A stretch of DNA of 32,000 nucleotides from Schaalia odontolytica (GTDB taxonomy: Bacteria; Actinomycetota; Actinomycetes; Actinomycetales; Actinomycetaceae), in the NCBI RefSeq assembly GCF_005696695.1, contig NZ_CP040006.1, forward strand, positions 1,590,001 through 1,622,000, given 5' to 3'. The translations under genes were made by a program, and so were the position numbers. The notes under the pieces were generated by a model. That model worked only from the letters and a program-made list of their open reading frames with translations. It was not told the origin of the DNA and made no database searches. This document shows positions 7,047-28,578 of the stretch, in pieces (positions within the stretch are counted from its first letter, which is position 1; every line of letters begins with the position of its first letter).

Positions 7047-7123
7047 TGGTAGCGGGGACAGGATTTGAACCTGCGACCTCCGGGTTATGAGCCCGGCGAG
7101 CTACCGAACTGCTCCACCCCGCG
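7047..7123 (-). tRNA. Initiator tRNA-Met (anticodon CAU), 77 nt with encoded CCA
   Basis: Minus-strand sequence: CGCGGGGTGGAGCAGTTCGGTAGCTCGCCGGGCTCATAACCCGGAGGTCGCAGGTTCAAATCCTGTCCCCGCTACCA. It folds as a cloverleaf with loop CTCATAA. Three consecutive G-C pairs close the anticodon stem, and there is a C1/U72 mismatch at the top of the acceptor stem. Both are initiator hallmarks, and it closely resembles E. coli tRNA-fMet. Confidence 0.95.
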
Positions 7124-19630: not shown

Positions 19631-20241
19631 GCGCGCGCCTGGTCTTCGCAACCTCCAACGCGCACAAGGTCAGCGAGCTCGAGGCCATCCTGGCCCCCGC
19701 GTGGGAGGGCTTCGAGGCCGGCTGCGTGGCGCGCATGAGCGATTTCGACGTGGCTTCCCCGGTCGAGGACGGTGTGACCTTCGAGGAGAACTCCCTCATC
19801 AAAGCCCGCGCGCTGGCTCGCGCCACCGGCCTGGCTGCCATCGCCGACGACTCCGGCATCACGGTGGACGTGCTGGGCGGAGCGCCCGGTATCTTCTCCG
19901 CGCGCTGGGCCGGCTCCCACGGGGACGATGCGGCGAATCTGCGTTTGCTCATCGATCAGCTCTCCGACGTTCCCGACGCCCACCGTGGTGCGGCCTTCGT
20001 GTCGGCTGCTGTCCTCGTCACCCCGGACGGTCGCGAGTTCGTCGAGCGCGGCGAGGTGCGCGGCACCCTGACGCGTTCCCCTCGCGGCGAGGGCGGGTTC
20101 GGCTACGACCCGATCTTTGTCCCCGAGGGCTTCGAGGTCACGACCGCTCAGATGAGCGCGGAACAGAAGAACGCGATCAGCCACCGCGGCATCGCCTTCC
20201 GCGCCCTCATGCCCCACATCGTGGAGTACCTGCGCGGCTGA
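19627..20241 (+). CDS. rdgB: Non-canonical purine NTP pyrophosphatase RdgB/HAM1
   Basis: Motifs [14 protein letters not shown] and [11 protein letters not shown]. The GTG start overlaps the rph stop (GTGA at 19627-19630). Confidence 0.9.
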
Positions 20242-20253
20242 GAAGCACCGCAG

Positions 20254-20295
20254 ACACAAATGTGCCGGGCACCCGAGGGTGTCCGGCACTTGTGT
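20254..20295. terminator. Imperfect long hairpin after rdgB, also downstream of the small - strand ORF
   Basis: ACACAAATGTGCCGGGCACC (20254-20273), loop cgag, GGTGTCCGGCACTTGTGT (20278-20295). About 16 pairs form, with one wobble and small bulges. Confidence 0.55.
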
Positions 20296-20316
20296 GTTGC
20301 GCCCGCAGGCGCGCCA

Positions 20317-20439
20317 TCAACGGGCGACGAGGTTGCCGAAGATGGGGCGGTCCATCGAGAACTGCAGGGGGTTGCGCTGTTGGCGCCACCTGCGGTGATG
20401 GGCGAGGCGATGAAGGAGTGATGCGACGAAACGAGACAT
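20317..20439 (-). CDS. Candidate small basic protein, 40 aa (MSRFVASLLHRLAHHRRWRQQRNPLQFSMDRPIFGNLVAR), below the ORF-track cutoff
   Basis: Hand translation of the minus strand. AAAGAGGAG lies 6 nt upstream of ATG (20439-20437) and the stop TGA is at 20319-20317. 31 of 40 codons end in G/C, like real genes in this window. The hairpin at 20254-20295 lies just downstream. I do not recognise a family. Confidence 0.4.
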   Translation of the reverse strand: MSRFVASLLHRLAHHRRWRQQRNPLQFSMDRPIFGNLVAR

Positions 20440-20637
20440 TGTGTGCTCCTCTTTGAGTACAGTGCGATGGATCTGTCACCGCGTCGTACTGCCATAGTGC
20501 GCCTGATTGTCCATGTTTTCCATCGATATTTTCTTATTTTTCTATGAAGCGTTTCTTACGGACTTTTCCTTGGTGCAGCTTGGAAAATTCTTGACTGAAG
20601 AGGGTCACTTCTCTTAATTAATCAGCCGGTGGATACA

Positions 20638-20670
20638 GTGAGGGGGCAGGCCCACGGCCTGCCCCCTCAC
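20638..20670 (-). terminator. Perfect 15-bp stem, 3-nt loop hairpin downstream of the small membrane protein gene
   Basis: GTGAGGGGGCAGGCC cac GGCCTGCCCCCTCAC. It lies 20 nt after the stop at 20691. On the minus strand it is followed by tgtatcc, a weak U-tract. Confidence 0.6.
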
Positions 20671-20690
20671 CACCCCAATTCAGCGAAGAG

Positions 20691-21023
20691 TCAGCGAGCG
20701 CGCGCCAGGCGCGCACGACGCGGCAGGAAGCGGCGCACGTCGAAGAAGCGAACGACCTGCATGATGCGGCGCGCGAGGCGGTCACGCACGCGCCAGATCA
20801 TGGTGCAGCCGACACCGATGAAGATGGCGTTCGTCAGGAAGGACGGCCACGCGCCGGTGGATGCACATGCGAGGGCCAGCAGAATGCAGCTGGAGACATT
20901 GAGAGAGTGGTAGCGCAGGGAGTCGGGAGCGAAGCGCTTGGAGGAAACCAGGTAGTAGGCGGCGATAGAGGCGCCCGCACCCAGCCAACCGAGGACCGGA
21001 ATTACAAGAGATGAGATCGTCAT
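20691..21023 (-). CDS. Small 3-TM membrane protein with an Arg-rich C-terminal tail (possibly CBU_0592-family-like)
   Basis: Three hydrophobic helices (SLVIPVLGWLGAGASIAAYYLV, LNVSSCILLALACAS, SFLTNAIFIGVGCTMIW) followed by a basic tail. It is divergent from a LysR regulator. The family name is from memory only. Confidence 0.6.
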   Translation of the reverse strand: MTISSLVIPVLGWLGAGASIAAYYLVSSKRFAPDSLRYHSLNVSSCILLALACASTGAWPSFLTNAIFIGVGCTMIWRVRDRLARRIMQVVRFFDVRRFLPRRARLARAR

Positions 21024-21109
21024 GACTCATATGATGCACCTTCCGCTAGTCAAGCACAATTGAATGGTTCTATAGTTATCTTACAGTTTCACTTAACGAA
21101 GGAGTTCGC

Positions 21110-24658: not shown

Positions 24659-26002
24659 ATGCCTGCATCAACATCTACTTCATTGCTGACTGATATGTAC
24701 GAGCTCACGATGCTCGACGCCGCCCTGAAGGATGGCACCGCGCATCGTCGCTGCACGTTTGAGCTGTTTGGGCGCCGCCTGCCCGCCACGCGACGCTTCG
24801 GCGTTGTCGCCGGCACCGGTCGCATTCTCGAGGCCCTGGAACGCTTCGAGTTCGACGCTGAACAGATCGATTGGTTGCGCGACCAGGGGATCATCTCCGA
24901 GGAGGCCGCGCAGTTCCTGGCTTCGTGGCGTTTCACGGGCGACATCTGGGGCTACGCCGAGGGCGAGTGCTACTTCCCCGGCTCTCCCCTGCTGACCGTT
25001 GAGGGCACGTTCGCGGACTGCACGCTCCTGGAGACGCTGCTCCTGTCGATCCTCAACCACGATTGCGCGGTGGCTTCCGCCGCCTCGCGTATGACGATCG
25101 CCGCCCACGGCCGTCCCTGCATGGACATGGGTGCTCGCCGTGCCCACGAACGCGCCGCGGTCTCCGCCGCCCGCGCCGCCATCATCGGCGGTTTCCAGGG
25201 CACCTCCGACCTCGAGGCAGCCAAGCGCTACGGGATCCGCTGCATCGGCACGGCCGCCCACGCGTTCACGCTCCTGCACGACAGCGAACGCGACGCCTTC
25301 GACTCTCAGGTCGCCAAGCTGGGCGCGGGCACGACCCTGCTCGTGGACACCTACGACATCAGGCAGGGCGTCATCAACGCGGTCGAGGCTGCGCGCGCTG
25401 CCGGCGGCGAGCTGGGCGCGGTGCGCCTGGACTCCGGCGACCTGGTCGCTGAAGCGTTCAAGGTGCGCGGACAGCTCGACGCGATGGGCGCGACCACCAC
25501 GAAGATCACGGTGACCTCCGACCTGGACGAGTACGCGATCGCCGCCCTCGGCGCGGCCCCCGTGGACTCCTACGGCGTGGGCACCAAGCTCGTGACGGGT
25601 TCGGGCGTCCCGACGGCCGCCCTGGTCTACAAGGTTGTCCAGCGCGAGGATAGCAACGGCCAGATCGTGTCTGTGGCCAAGAAGGCCGAGTCAAAGTCCA
25701 CGGTCGGCGGACGCAAGGTTGCCGGCCGCGTCATGGGCGAGGACGGCTACGCGACCGAGGAGCTCCTGCTCGTCGGCACGTCCTTCGAGGAGGGCCAGGC
25801 TCTGCTGGCCGAGCGCGGCGCCCGCCCGCTGCAGGTCCAGCTGGTCCGCGGCGGCCAGATCGACGCCGAAGCCTGGGGCCCCGAGGCGCTGTCCCGCGCC
25901 CAGGAGCGCCACCTGCGCGCCCGCAACGAGCTGCCCTACCAGGCGTGGCGCCTGTCCGAGGGCGAGGTCGCAATCCCCACGCGCTACGAGCAGGTCGACT
26001 GA
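24659..26002 (+). CDS. pncB: Nicotinate phosphoribosyltransferase
   Basis: N-terminal LLTDMYELTMLDAAL, then GTAAHAF and LLVDTYD motifs. 447 aa. Confidence 0.9.
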   Translation: MPASTSTSLLTDMYELTMLDAALKDGTAHRRCTFELFGRRLPATRRFGVVAGTGRILEALERFEFDAEQIDWLRDQGIISEEAAQFLASWRFTGDIWGYAEGECYFPGSPLLTVEGTFADCTLLETLLLSILNHDCAVASAASRMTIAAHGRPCMDMGARRAHERAAVSAARAAIIGGFQGTSDLEAAKRYGIRCIGTAAHAFTLLHDSERDAFDSQVAKLGAGTTLLVDTYDIRQGVINAVEAARAAGGELGAVRLDSGDLVAEAFKVRGQLDAMGATTTKITVTSDLDEYAIAALGAAPVDSYGVGTKLVTGSGVPTAALVYKVVQREDSNGQIVSVAKKAESKSTVGGRKVAGRVMGEDGYATEELLLVGTSFEEGQALLAERGARPLQVQLVRGGQIDAEAWGPEALSRAQERHLRARNELPYQAWRLSEGEVAIPTRYEQVD

Positions 26003-26182
26003 CCCTCAGCTCTCACTGAACGAAGCCCCGGCCTCGTCCTTCACTGAACTGCCTCCCGTTTCTTGGACATCGACATTGAAGTCCAGGGAATGGGAGGCTT
26101 TTCATGCCCGCAAATCCGCGCAGAACGCATGGCCCTGTACTGCAAGCCTGAGCCCTCGTCGACTGCTGAATCTACAAAGAAA

Positions 26183-26278
26183 CTTGTTACCCGATGGGGT
26201 GTAACACCTGATCGGGAAGATTCAACCCCTTCTGATCGGGTTGAATGCTCCCGATCAGGTTGAATCCTGACGATCGTG
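26183..26278 (+). repeat. Module A1 (about 95 bp), direct repeat of A2 at roughly 88% identity
   Basis: cttgttacccgatggggtgtaacacctgatcgggaagattcaaccccttctgatcgggttgaatgctcccgatcaggttgaatcctgacgatcg aligns by eye with 26688-26780. Hairpin 1 is at 26190-26216 and hairpin 2 at 26220-26246. A 19-nt tandem duplication spans 26234-26252 and 26253-26269. Confidence 0.85.
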
Positions 26279-26370
26279 TCTTTCGTATTCAGCGTCGGCC
26301 CGATGCAGGTCGGGAGGATCAGGCTCACCACGTCACCAATGACGAACTCACACATGTCCCCGCAGTGCGG

Positions 26371-26477
26371 CTTGTTGCTAAGCGGTGTTACACCACTTAG
26401 CAGGGTATTGCACCAGCTCGGAAGTGGTGTACTGCTCCCTAACTGGTGTAATGCTCCCTAAACGGCACAGTACTGCC
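26371..26477 (+). repeat. Module B1
   Basis: Hairpin 1: GCTAAGcGGTG-tta-CACCaCTTAGC (26377-26401). Hairpin 2: imperfect, about 26404-26436, with an 11-nt loop agctcggaagt. Tandem 19/20-nt units tggtgtaMtgctccctaa(a)c lie at 26425-26443 and 26444-26463. The palindrome CAGTACTG lies within 26464-26477. Confidence 0.75.
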
Positions 26478-26485
26478 TGCCGCAG

Positions 26486-26520
26486 CTTGGTTGACAGCAA
26501 TGTAACGACACATTGGGGCT
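26486..26520 (+). repeat. Module C (short; lead plus hairpin 1 only)
   Basis: cttggttgacag followed by CAATGT-aacgac-ACATTG (26498-26515). It shares the TGTAAC core with the hairpin-1 loop of A1. Confidence 0.5.
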
Positions 26521-26538
26521 TCCCCTGCCGCACGTGAG

Positions 26539-26646
26539 CTTGTAGCTAAGCAGCAGTGGACTACTTGGCGCAGCATTGCACTAGATAGAAGGCAGTGCAA
26601 TGCCCTCCTAACTAGTGCATTGCTGCTGCATCTAGTGCAGCACTAG
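26539..26646 (+). repeat. Module B2
   Basis: Hairpin 1: GCTAAGcAG-cagtgga-CTaCTTGGC (26545-26569). Hairpin 2: perfect 10-bp GCATTGCACT / AGTGCAATGC (26573-26603) with an 11-nt loop agatagaaggc. Further hairpin: CTAGTGCA...TGCAtCTAG (26612-26635). A 15-bp palindrome CTAGTGCaGCACTAG lies at 26632-26646. Confidence 0.75.
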
Positions 26647-26650
26647 GCTT

Positions 26651-26676
26651 GCCGGAGCGTCTCTCGGGCCGGTTTT
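26651..26676 (+). terminator. Weak candidate intrinsic terminator on the + strand after module B2
   Basis: GCCGGAG-cgtct-CTCGGGC (7-bp stem with one mismatch) followed by cggTTTTcc. This is the only T-run next to a hairpin in the island. Confidence 0.25.
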
Positions 26677-26687
26677 CCACGACAGGG

Positions 26688-26780
26688 CTTATTACCGATG
26701 GGGTCTGACACCCGATCAGCAAGATTCAACCCCTTCTGATCGGGTTGAATACTCCCGATCGGGTTGAATCCTGTCAATCG
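26688..26780 (+). repeat. Module A2, direct repeat of A1
   Basis: cttattaccgatggggtctgacacccgatcagcaagattcaaccccttctgatcgggttgaatactcccgatcgggttgaatcctgtcaatcg. Hairpin 1 is at 26697-26717 and hairpin 2 (ATTCAACCC/GGGTTGAAT) at 26724-26750. Confidence 0.85.
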
Positions 26781-26835
26781 CGCATTCGCTATCTAGTGGC
26801 AGATTGACGCGGAGCGGATGCTGTGGAACCGAAGG

Positions 26836-28578
26836 TCAGTGGCGGCCGACGAACCACTCGCGCAGCAGGGCGATGCGGGCCTCGATCTGCTCGGTCGTGG
26901 CCTGGGCGACCTCGGGGCCGCCGCAGCGCGAACGCAGGCGCGAGTGAATCGTCGCGTGGGTCTCGCCGGAGCGGCGCGACCATGTAGAAACCAGGTGCTG
27001 AAGCTCCTTGCGCTTGGCGGCACGCAGCTTGTGGGCGGGGATTCCGGCGTTTTCTTCACGCATCTTCTGCGCGGCGCGGGTCTTCTTCTGGGCGGCAACC
27101 TGGTCGGCCTGGCGGGCGCGCAGCAGGGTCGTCACCTGATCGGCGTCCAGCAGGCCGGGAATACCCAGATATTCCTGCTCTTCCTCGGAGCCGACCTCCG
27201 CGCCCGCGCCCCACGCGGCACCGTCGAAGAGGACACCGTCAAACTCGGCGTCCGCCCCCAGGACCTCGAACTGCGAGAGCAGGTCGGAGGAAGCTTTCTC
27301 CTCGCGGTTCGCGGCCGCGACGAGGGCATCCTCGGGATTCCACATGTCGTCTTCGCTGGCCTCGTCACGCTTGGGCCGGTCCAGCGCATGGTCGCGCTCG
27401 ACCTCCATGCCGCCGGCGAGCGTCAGCAGGGGCACGACGGAGGGGATGAAGACGGTGGCCGTCTCACCGCGGCGACGGGCTCGCACGTAGCGGCCGATGG
27501 CCTGGGCAAAGAACAGCGGCGTGGAGGCATTCGTCGCGTAGACGCCGACCGCGAGGCGGGGCACGTCGACGCCCTCGGACACCATGCGCACGGCGACCAT
27601 CCACTTGTCGGTGGAGTCGGCGAACTCGGAGATGCGGTCGGAGGCGTCCGCGTCGTCGGACAGGACGATCGTGGGGGCCTTGCCGGTGATCAGGCGCAGG
27701 TGGCGGGCGTAGGCGCGCGCGTGCTCCTGGTTGGAGGCGATGACGAGACCTCCCGCGTCGGGCACGGCGCGGCGCACCTCTTCGAGGCGCATATCGGCGG
27801 CACGCAGGACGGCGGGAATCCACTCGCCCTTCGGGTCCAGCGCGGTGCGCCAGGCCTGCTTCATCATGTCCTTGGTGAGGGGCTCACCCAGGCGGGCGCT
27901 GACCTCGTCGCCCGCGCTGGTGCGCCAGGCCATCTGCCCCGAGTAGGACATGAACAGGACGGGACGAACGACGCCGTCCTTGAGGGCATCGCCGTAGCCG
28001 TAGGTGTAGTCGGCGCGCGAGCGTCGGATGCCTTCCTCGTCCTCCTCGTAGGTGACGAAGGGAATCGGAGAGGTATCGGAGCGGAAGGGCGTGCCCGTCA
28101 GCGCCAGGCGCCGCGTCGCGTCCGTGAAGGCCTCGCGCACGCCGTCGCCCCACGACAGGGAGTCGCCGGCGTGGTGGATTTCGTCGAGGATGACGAGGGT
28201 ACGGTAGGCGCGGGTGCGCGCCGCATGAACGGCCGGGTTGGAGCCAATCTGCGCGTAGGTGACGGCCACGCCGTCGAAGTGGGAGCCGGCAACGCCCTGC
28301 GAGTTCGTAAAGTCGGGGTCGATGTGGATGCCGAAGCGCGCCGCGCTCGAGGCCCACTGTCCCTTGAGGTGCTCGGTGGGGCACACGACGGTGAGCTTGT
28401 CAACGATGCCGCGGGCGATCAGTTCGGTCGCAAGCGTCAGGGCGAAGGTCGTCTTACCTGCGCCCGGCGTTGCGACCGCCAGGAAGTCGCGCGGGGAGGT
28501 CGCCATGTAGCGATCCAGGGCAGCGGCCTGCCAGGCGCGCAACCTGCCAACGGGTGCGCGCCGGGTCGTCTCGCTCAC
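26836..28578 (-). CDS. Superfamily 2 DEAD/DEAH-box helicase (DNA/RNA helicase, ResIII-like N-terminal domain)
   Basis: Walker A ATPGAGKTTFAL, DEAH-type box LVILDEIHHAGD, and a helicase C domain. The GTG start overlaps the stop of the upstream DUF3039 gene (GTGA at 28578-28575). Confidence 0.85.
   Translation of the reverse strand: MSETTRRAPVGRLRAWQAAALDRYMATSPRDFLAVATPGAGKTTFALTLATELIARGIVDKLTVVCPTEHLKGQWASSAARFGIHIDPDFTNSQGVAGSHFDGVAVTYAQIGSNPAVHAARTRAYRTLVILDEIHHAGDSLSWGDGVREAFTDATRRLALTGTPFRSDTSPIPFVTYEEDEEGIRRSRADYTYGYGDALKDGVVRPVLFMSYSGQMAWRTSAGDEVSARLGEPLTKDMMKQAWRTALDPKGEWIPAVLRAADMRLEEVRRAVPDAGGLVIASNQEHARAYARHLRLITGKAPTIVLSDDADASDRISEFADSTDKWMVAVRMVSEGVDVPRLAVGVYATNASTPLFFAQAIGRYVRARRRGETATVFIPSVVPLLTLAGGMEVERDHALDRPKRDEASEDDMWNPEDALVAAANREEKASSDLLSQFEVLGADAEFDGVLFDGAAWGAGAEVGSEEEQEYLGIPGLLDADQVTTLLRARQADQVAAQKKTRAAQKMREENAGIPAHKLRAAKRKELQHLVSTWSRRSGETHATIHSRLRSRCGGPEVAQATTEQIEARIALLREWFVGRH

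Follow-up and report, generated by a model that had tools for sequence, protein, structure and literature searches.

A strain-variable array of dispersed hairpin-forming modules probably fills the pncB–helicase spacer of Schaalia odontolytica

What occupies the 833 bp that separate the facing ends of pncB and a helicase gene in Schaalia odontolytica, a commensal common in the human mouth and the model host for Saccharibacteria (TM7x)? The two genes lie in the 32,000-nt stretch of DNA analyzed here (contig NZ_CP040006.1, positions 1,590,001 to 1,622,000 of the forward strand; hereafter the window), with the stop of pncB—whose product contains the Pfam domains NAPRTase_N and NAPRTase—at position 26002 and that of the minus-strand ResIII/DEAD helicase gene at 26836. 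An initial annotation described the spacer as free of open reading frames (ORFs) of note, low in GC, hairpin-dense, and built from five related modules; it named tandem small RNAs and a palindromic repeat cluster among the candidate explanations, and suggested searches of Rfam and of other genomes as checks. As argued below, the spacer probably holds a non-coding array (four modules and their linkers) that belongs to a family of modular interspersed repeats which form hairpins and resemble bacterial interspersed mosaic elements (BIMEs) and BOX elements. No description of such a module family was found in the literature on Actinomyces and Schaalia repeats, on repetitive extragenic palindromes (REPs) and REP-associated tyrosine transposases (RAYTs), or on the Actinomyces-1 motif.

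The spacer has a GC content of 0.552, compared with 0.692 for pncB and 0.697 for the helicase gene, and is the lowest-GC 833-nt segment across the 32 kb. Its largest ORFs, of 104, 66, 61, 53, and 51 amino acids, gave zero matches to Pfam; furthermore, the strains bearing the island (that is, the content of the long spacer) differ from one another by 1-nt, 19-nt, and larger indels that break every reading frame, and coding is thereby ruled out. The same two observations speak against the idea of a degraded pseudogene, the only gene remnant present being the left end of an insertion sequence (IS). Folded whole as single-stranded DNA, the island reached -183 kcal/mol, versus -126 +/- 6 kcal/mol for dinucleotide shuffles (z = -9.5), and single modules gave z values of -2.2 to -5.7 on either strand. 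Tandem Repeats Finder detected 19-nt tandem units in the modules A1, B1, and A2, and repeat finders returned a direct repeat of A1 and A2, 504 nt apart, together with dense inverted repeats. The original picture of a long, ORF-free, GC-poor, and hairpin-dense spacer between convergent genes was therefore borne out.

The proposal of five related modules held for four of them. A covariance model (CM R1), built after 36 diverse modules of many loci had been aligned by MAFFT with hardly a gap over ~92 nt, matched only A1, B1, B2, and A2 in the window, at 71-89 bits, with minus-strand shadows of 25-50 bits. The remaining segment, "C", was reassigned as a linker, since it has no CM R1 match, merely starts with CTTGG, and groups with the linkers found before B2 modules. 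Modules are ~100 nt each and fall into four homologous, collinear classes—A, B1, B2, and D, the last absent from the window—with a common plan, to which the CTTGTT-like lead noticed at the outset indeed belongs. The lead (G|CTTGTT) is followed by a region centered on a GGTG(0-3 nt)CACC palindrome, forming a long hairpin in classes A and B1, a weaker one in B2, and only an 8-bp palindrome in D. An inverted unit, u3 (ATTnCACCn), comes next, then a 9-nt loop, two positions of which are conserved, and 2-8 direct units nGGTGnAAT (u4, u5, and so on) that recur every 19 nt; the plan is completed by the terminal unit common to all classes, GGTGCAGCGCTGC, and a linker of ~60 nt. The units characteristic of the classes are GGTTGAAT (A), GGTGTAAT (B1), AGTGCAAT (B2), and GGGTGCAT (D). 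The main hairpin has 9-15 bp and the 9-nt loop, and the 19-nt tandem copies are copies of its 3′ arm.

Between u3 and u4, 91% of cells were paired, with a covariation score of 0.45 that 0/500 shuffles reached, and shifting the partner by 1-3 columns lowered pairing to 29-40%; column pair 42/62, for instance, is G-C in 13 modules, C-G in 10, and A-U in 7. At the level of sequence, the hairpin arms are shown to differ between classes through compensatory changes. Covariation of u3 with the next direct unit, u5, is nearly as strong (87%, 0.40). In class A, the first palindrome is still GGTGT/ACACC, while u3-u6 have all become the GGTTGAAT type. This confinement of the changes to pairing partners and tandem copies favors a selected hairpin—its 3′ arm tandemly duplicated and homogenized by slippage—over a single protein reading all six units.

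The dispersed-repeat identity of the modules is secure. Within the window, a 25-nt core of module A occurs just twice, but in metagenome contigs it was found in at least 120 stretches with widely different flanks, homology consistently starting at CTTGTT; the downstream flanks formed 16 clusters, a number to be taken as an upper guide because some flanks are themselves array sequence. BLAST searches with representatives of the four classes located 327 modules at 127 loci, in arrays of 1-7 with a median start-to-start distance of 168 nt, and 0/127 loci contained modules on both strands. Besides pncB/helicase, the contexts include the gene pairs CAP-domain surface-type protein/aminopeptidase N, unknown protein/DEAD-box helicase, and rplL/MerR. 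In two loci (cited, like all others, by number: L082 and L182), arrays of the same orientation bracket a gene that is presumed, from its translation only, to encode malic enzyme, and in both contigs the upstream array ends in a module truncated into the upstream region of that gene. One 1.48-Mb contig carries at least four solitary A copies, and its genome has an empty pncB site. Arrays lie mostly between convergent genes or 3′ of tandem genes, and seldom by gene starts. A statistic on co-orientation with the upstream gene was discarded as automatic for convergent spacers; in ~4 tandem-context loci, the only informative ones, the array appears co-oriented with the genes.

With respect to host range, CM R1 was run over 1.48 Mb of pncB neighborhoods from 80 genomes and matched only six islands, suggesting that the family is moderately abundant and restricted, as sampled, to the S. 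odontolytica group. Beyond the pncB–helicase spacer, no further module was present in the window or in the 20-kb pncB neighborhoods of the 80 genomes, and neither plasmids and phages (BLASTN, distant mode) nor viral contigs (exact-pattern scan) matched the module-A core or the island. As far as sampled, the family is thus confined to the oral S. odontolytica group (formerly Actinomyces odontolyticus).

Some solitary A-type modules (L112:4133-4465; L145, L083, L120, L149, and L151) sit inside a larger repeat of ~280-330 nt, which occurs at least four times in one 1.48-Mb contig, within long (>1 kb) non-coding regions, and around which neither defined ends nor an Rfam RNA were found. Within the window, a second low-GC stretch (0.57) at 20200-21100 is an AT-rich intergenic/promoter region with small ORFs, located between divergent genes, and contains no modules.

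The same spacer in relatives reveals what preceded the array. A scan with one genome per species returned 80 pncB loci, among which those with pncB at least 96% identical were taken as close relatives. Sixteen of these have a spacer of only 106-115 bp. In six others (L001, L004, L006, L007, L012, and L013), the spacer is long and homologous to the island, the islands measuring 585-897 bp or more, and in one more (L002) an intact IS makes up an insertion of 1.5 kb. The short spacers hold one bidirectional terminator hairpin, GCCCCGGCCTCGTCCTTC-loop-GAGGGACGAGGCCGGGGC (L003, L005, L008, L014, L046, L052, and others), and this comparison shows an ancestral spacer, as reconstructed, of ~110 bp with that single hairpin. 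The window keeps the 5′ arm of the terminator, GCCCCGGCCTCGTCCTTC (26025-26042), within a native spacer remnant at 26003..26044 that was recognized against the empty-site relatives, and a second native remnant at 26809..26835, next to the helicase stop, matches the last ~30 nt of empty-site spacers (GCGG...GCGTCAGTG), neither remnant being assigned a strand; the 3′ arm is gone. The island thus appears to have destroyed or replaced a bidirectional terminator formerly common to pncB and the helicase gene. At third codon positions, the window's pncB is nearer to that of the empty-site L003 (0.897) than to that of the island-bearing L004 (0.83), so that the presence of the island does not track the phylogeny of the flanking genes. 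These spacer states among near-identical relatives indicate that the island is, by comparison of sequences, a derived and strain-variable insertion. The claim that the flanking genes do not explain the island stands. Its modules belong to a dispersed family that occurs between many unrelated genes, and it is present or absent among near-identical strains.

Several side observations were made at this position. Records titled Xylanimonas and Sanguibacter keddieii (L001, L003, and L013) have pncB and helicase genes 98-100% identical to those of Schaalia; mislabelling or contamination of these assemblies is probable. In more distant Schaalia species, the place of the island is taken either by a short spacer or by other content, namely a small gene (L028, L024, L023, and L030) that we take, from its translation only, to be SMR-like; a guanidine-II (mini-ykkC) riboswitch, scoring above the gathering threshold with 39.4 and 33.1 bits, precedes it at L028:11702-11746 (-) and L024:11746-11790 (-), respectively. 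In a Pauljensenia metagenome-assembled genome (L026:11327-11700), the spacer has 46% GC and contains 16-17-nt tandem units (CGATCAGAAGTGTGGG, with a start CTGTTTGTCGATCAG), on which the module covariance model made no detection; these are possibly an unrelated or very distant repeat.

The loss of the terminator can be connected with an IS, neither of which figured in the initial annotation. In L002 (11393-12860), an intact IS lies exactly in the loop of the terminator hairpin, flanked by a 3-bp duplication, CGG; a second intact copy (L098:696-2165), with the duplication TTT, is likewise in a terminator loop, both hairpins being GC-rich (GCCCCGGCC...). The element is assigned to the IS3 family on the basis of its inverted repeats, starting TGAACTGC, and its orfA and orfB with HTH_Tnp_1 and rve domains, respectively; the family is defined by TG...CA terminal inverted repeats (TIRs), orfA and orfB, and a 3-4-bp target duplication, and the intact copies agree with this definition, whereas the window has a left-end relic only. 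IS1397 inserts in the hairpin loops of BIMEs, and the two insertions suggest that the IS3-family element may similarly target hairpin loops. In the window, the relic (26045..26110, + strand; TIR TGAACTGCCTCCCGTTTCTTGGAC) is 98% identical over 62 nt to the left end of the L002 IS and includes that element's hairpin (arms 26045-26071 and 26078-26104, inverted repeat I4, followed by CTTTTC) and a degenerate start of orfA (ATG at 26103). In all, the leftmost ~65-130 nt from 26045 are IS-derived rather than module sequence, and the body and right end of the IS are missing together with the terminator's 3′ arm. A weak resemblance to GGCAGATTGAC at the right border of the island was considered as the right end and judged to be chance.

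A similar arrangement occurs at the CAP-domain-protein locus (L173:7100-7145; also L121, L124, L140, L177, L195, and L200), where the left-end relic of the same IS precedes a solitary A module. There, the hairpin of the relic has changed into a perfect palindrome of 18 bp (CCTCCCGTTTCTTGGAGA/TCTCCAAGAAACGGGAGG) with CTTTTC or CTTTCC after it, and possibly now serves as the terminator of that gene. At both the pncB and CAP-protein loci, then, an A module follows the left-end relic of this IS and the 3′ arm of the terminator is absent, which suggests IS-associated rearrangement as one vehicle of the modules.

Once established, arrays appear to change readily. At one locus, represented by 36 contigs with the same downstream terminator, module order differs between strains, with B1-B2-A, B1-B2-D-A, D-A, B1-D-B2-D-A, B2-A-B1-D-B2-A, and others observed. 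Modules contain anywhere from 2 to 8 of the 19-nt units; among the pncB islands, clear units in B1 number two for the window, against three for L001 and about five for L006. The largest expansion observed is a single D module with eight consecutive 19-nt units (GGGTGCATCGCAACGTAAC), in an array 3′ of an unknown-protein gene (L115). Deletions in L007 and L013 (A1) and in L001 (A2) join CGATCG or CCGAT microhomologies of 5-7 nt. Linker type tracks the following module (for example, 18/18 before D and 17/17 before B2) and not the preceding one, implying that the recombining unit is linker, lead, and module, with breakpoints at the common terminal unit. Site-specific recombination at the lead was rejected, since breakpoints at the terminal unit are compatible with homologous recombination. 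Together, the patterns of order, unit number, and deletion are as would be expected from slippage combined with unequal or ectopic homologous recombination. Between strains, identity is 88-98% for modules, 78% for linker sp1, and 82-86% at third codon positions of the flanking genes, so the modules appear, from these identities, to be mildly constrained or homogenized.

The history of the island includes insertion of the IS3-family element into the loop of the terminator hairpin, a state represented by the still intact copy in L002; the island-bearing strains keep only the left end, with the array after it. The array may have reached the pncB site through an IS-associated rearrangement. Arrays would grow, shrink, and reshuffle by replication slippage between 19-nt units and, by a second route, unequal or ectopic homologous recombination at common segments such as the terminal unit and the lead. 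Slippage would also prevent the tandem 3′-arm copies from diverging from their hairpin partner, and the hairpin itself might persist either through a structure-specific factor by which the element is copied or moved, or through a role as transcript end or insulator.

Several points weigh against an interspersed repeat maintained in this manner. No TIR, target-site duplication (TSD), or defined end was found at the borders of modules or arrays, including among aligned solitary A copies, and a crude scan for HUH...Y motifs in 7661 ORFs (~2 Mb of array and pncB loci) returned no plausible Y1/RAYT transposase. The conservation of modules above that of sp1 and third codon positions could reflect function rather than homogenization, and the retention in all classes of the lead, the two loop positions, and strict single-strand polarity points to recognition by a factor.

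Read from left to right on the + strand, the island continues after the IS relic with a pre-A linker (26111..26182) ending in GACTGCYGRATCCRCRAYGAAR before CTTGTT, a type that also precedes A modules at L095, L115, L118, L146, and L163. Module A1 (26183..26290; CM R1 83.3 bits, fold z = -4.5) has a CTTGTT lead, the palindrome CCCGATGGGGTGTAACACCTGATCGGG, a hairpin pairing 26206-26228 with 26238-26260 (23 nt, 91% complementary; inverted repeat I5), and direct units GATCrGGTTGAAT with a period of 19 according to Tandem Repeats Finder. The locus-specific A1-B1 linker sp1 (26291..26370), of the pre-B1 type, is the least conserved part of the island, being 78% identical to its counterparts in L006 and L013 versus 88-95% for modules. 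Module B1 (26371..26480; 89.3 bits, z = -5.7) has, after its lead, the palindrome GCTAAGCGGTGTTACACCACTTAGC and the inverted unit ATTGCACCAG, with direct units CTGGTGTAAT spaced at 19 nt (repeats D5, I15, I16, and I23), and is followed by linker "C" (26481..26538), a pre-B2 mini-cassette running from CTTGGTTGACAGC to CTGCCGCACGTGAG. In module B2 (26539..26650; 71.5 bits), the lead reads CTTGTA and the first hairpin is weak; its inverted unit is GCATTGCACTAG, and its direct units, CTAGTGCAwTGC, recur about every 20 nt (inverted repeats I2, I3, and I24). The B2-A2 linker sp2 (26651..26687) is 88-100% identical among island-bearing strains. Module A2, with its 3′ tail (26688..26808; 79.5 bits), has the lead CTTATT and, in the tail, a small inverted repeat GTCAATC...GATTGAC. 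Its relation to A1 is that of the direct repeat D1, 78% identical over 123 nt (88% over 94 nt by blastn).

Among other explanations of the modules, one holds that they are transcribed structured RNA, either a multi-hairpin extension of the 3′ untranslated region—serving as stabilizer, processing platform, or protein sponge—or tandem small RNAs. The compensatory changes that keep the main hairpin in four classes, the two conserved loop positions, and the module fold z values would all be expected of such an RNA, as would the single-strand arrays and their co-orientation with tandem neighbors in ~4 loci; in addition, two conserved G-T pairs lengthen the B1 stem on the + strand only. In class A, however, the commonest non-Watson-Crick pair is A-C (21, versus 4 for G-T), a wobble on the - strand only and thus the opposite of B1, and the - strand folds equally well as the + strand. 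Moreover, u3 covaries equally with the non-partner u5, module number and order vary freely between strains, whole islands are dispensable, and the IS-relic hairpin and CTTTTC sit between pncB and the modules. A consensus scan found neither a sigma-70-like promoter nor an intrinsic terminator, and Rfam 15, with its Actinomyces-1 and other actinobacterial motifs, searched with the island (E up to 10), the whole window (gathering threshold), and a solitary-copy locus, gave only sub-threshold noise (animal miRNA at <=32.7 bits, signal recognition particle RNA, and c-di-AMP). The check proposed in the initial annotation, which was to include motifs from Actinomyces, yielded no bacterial family even at E = 10, and its candidate of tandem small structured RNAs is disfavored by the missing Rfam family, by the lack of promoter and terminator consensus, and by the inconsistent strand bias of the wobble pairs. 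Discrete small RNAs have, from these sequence comparisons, no positive support, and transcribed structure as a whole appears unlikely. The sole gathering-level Rfam match in the window is a tRNA gene at 7050-7123 (-).

About as unlikely is a reading, in line with the protein-binding array named in the initial annotation, of each module as an array of double-stranded DNA binding sites—six sites of ~13 bp in the orientation + - - + + +, comparable to iterons, transposon-end arrays, or resolution accessory sites—bound by class-specific proteins or by one protein reading a GGTGnA core, and nucleating a complex for recombination, replication, partition, or silencing. Copies of the unit do covary with one another, whether direct or inverted, the 19-nt spacing is constant in all classes, and the GGTG..CACC palindrome is kept where a hairpin is impossible, as in class D (GGTGCACC). 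The combination of an inverted pair with direct repeats also resembles the accessory-site layouts of recombinases and transposases, which offers a lead, and the low GC content could attract nucleoid proteins. On this reading, however, a separate specificity would be required for each of the four classes, and the loci examined showed no candidate gene linked to the arrays. The first palindrome of class A stayed B1-type as u3-u6 changed, which pairing partners fit better; a spacing of 19 bp places successive sites on different faces of the helix; and the number of sites ranges over 2-8 with no apparent constraint.

A bolder proposal, also rather improbable, is that the modules are substrates of a structure-specific machinery, a candidate being a single-stranded DNA nuclease or recombinase of the HUH type or another, that would recognize the G|CTTGTT lead and the hairpin, with class identity residing in the co-varying stems and the arrays being actively rewritten cassettes; alternatively, they would form a transcribed multi-hairpin platform with class-specific partners. 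CTTG is the nick or target site of enzymes of the pC194, phiX174, and IS91 types, which the module lead recalls.

Finally, a view of the island as junk in decay, be it the remains of a pseudogene or of a mobile element, without repeat-family identity, is very improbable and for 26183-26800 largely refuted. Although the left ~65-130 nt do represent the left end of an IS3-family element, degraded and with its orfA start ruined, and sp1 evolves at an approximately neutral rate, the other ~650 nt are modules of conserved architecture with hundreds of copies elsewhere, the spacer ORFs lack Pfam matches, and the modules are unlike the IS body, no module match being present in the L002 element.

A dispersed repeat family that is gained, lost, and reshuffled between near-identical Schaalia strains would account for long, low-GC, "empty" spacers in these genomes. 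Many of the matches lie at contig ends, so the arrays likely break short-read assemblies; they also offer high-resolution loci for strain typing. With four classes built on one hairpin plan and arm copies that track their partner, the family provides a clean natural setting in which the maintenance and spread of hairpin repeats can be studied in a high-GC Gram-positive bacterium, and the discovery of a dedicated structure-specific enzyme, or of a partner among RNAs or proteins, would add to its interest.

How, then, does the family compare with known systems? The CRISPR (clustered regularly interspaced short palindromic repeats) assignment, which calls for identical repeats of 23-50 nt with unique spacers of similar length, fails because the 19-nt units directly adjoin one another and the ~168-nt period is that of homologous modules and linkers. 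A miniature inverted-repeat transposable element was rejected since the modules have neither TIR nor TSD, the TIR beginning at 26045 being that of the IS relic, with its partner absent. Integron attC sites likewise form arrays of structure-conserved, sequence-variable palindromes whose order is shuffled, with a GTT motif at unit boundaries; however, the leads GTTACCG, GTTGCTA, and GTTGTGG misfit GTTRRRY, R''/L'' are lacking, and the breakpoints coincide with the terminal unit, not with the lead, so that the Schaalia arrays are not attC arrays. No intI/attI or integrase was seen beside the arrays examined, and the family spans many loci. The 19-bp repeats of Tn402, the IRS of Tn4430, and plasmid iterons also combine direct and inverted copies of 12-19-bp motifs within ~100 bp, the direct copies ~19-22 bp apart. 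Unlike these, the Schaalia arrays are chromosomal and dispersed, contain many tandem modules of different specificity, and adjoin no rep, transposase, or recombinase gene. The mycobacterial interspersed repetitive units and variable-number tandem repeats (MIRU/VNTR) of Mycobacterium are actinobacterial intergenic tandem repeats with a copy number that varies between strains at each locus, but MIRUs are 40-100-bp units, often over the stop and start codons of operons, and have neither a hairpin with sub-repeats nor class shuffling.

The closest systems are REP/BIME clusters and the BOX elements of pneumococcus. The suggestion of a REP/BIME-like cluster, put forward in the initial annotation, thus holds as to dispersed, multi-copy palindromes and as the nearest of its candidates, but not in the details: the GTAG/CGTC tag is not conserved at the foot of either Schaalia hairpin, which has the G|CTTGTT lead instead, and orientation, alternating in BIMEs, is uniform within every Schaalia locus. 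The modules are moreover ~100 nt long with internal 19-nt tandem units, and the flanking RAYT gene expected of REPs did not emerge from the crude motif scan described above. Shared with REP/BIME clusters are short imperfect palindromes (20-40 nt) in many intergenic regions, mainly at 3′ ends or between convergent genes, here in the at least 120 metagenome stretches and 327 modules already cited; arrays with characteristic linkers; several sequence classes per genome; gain and loss between strains; and the presence of an IS3-family element in hairpin loops, as with IS1397 in BIMEs. The BOX elements of Streptococcus pneumoniae (boxA-boxB(n)-boxC) belong to another phylum, and the likeness to them lies in modular logic alone; the Schaalia modules differ in also forming head-to-tail arrays (~168-nt period), in having four co-varying classes, and in that the repeated sub-unit is the 3′ arm of a hairpin. 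In both, nevertheless, a modular, intergenic, non-coding element combines a variable number of internal sub-units with strong predicted structure and varies from strain to strain.

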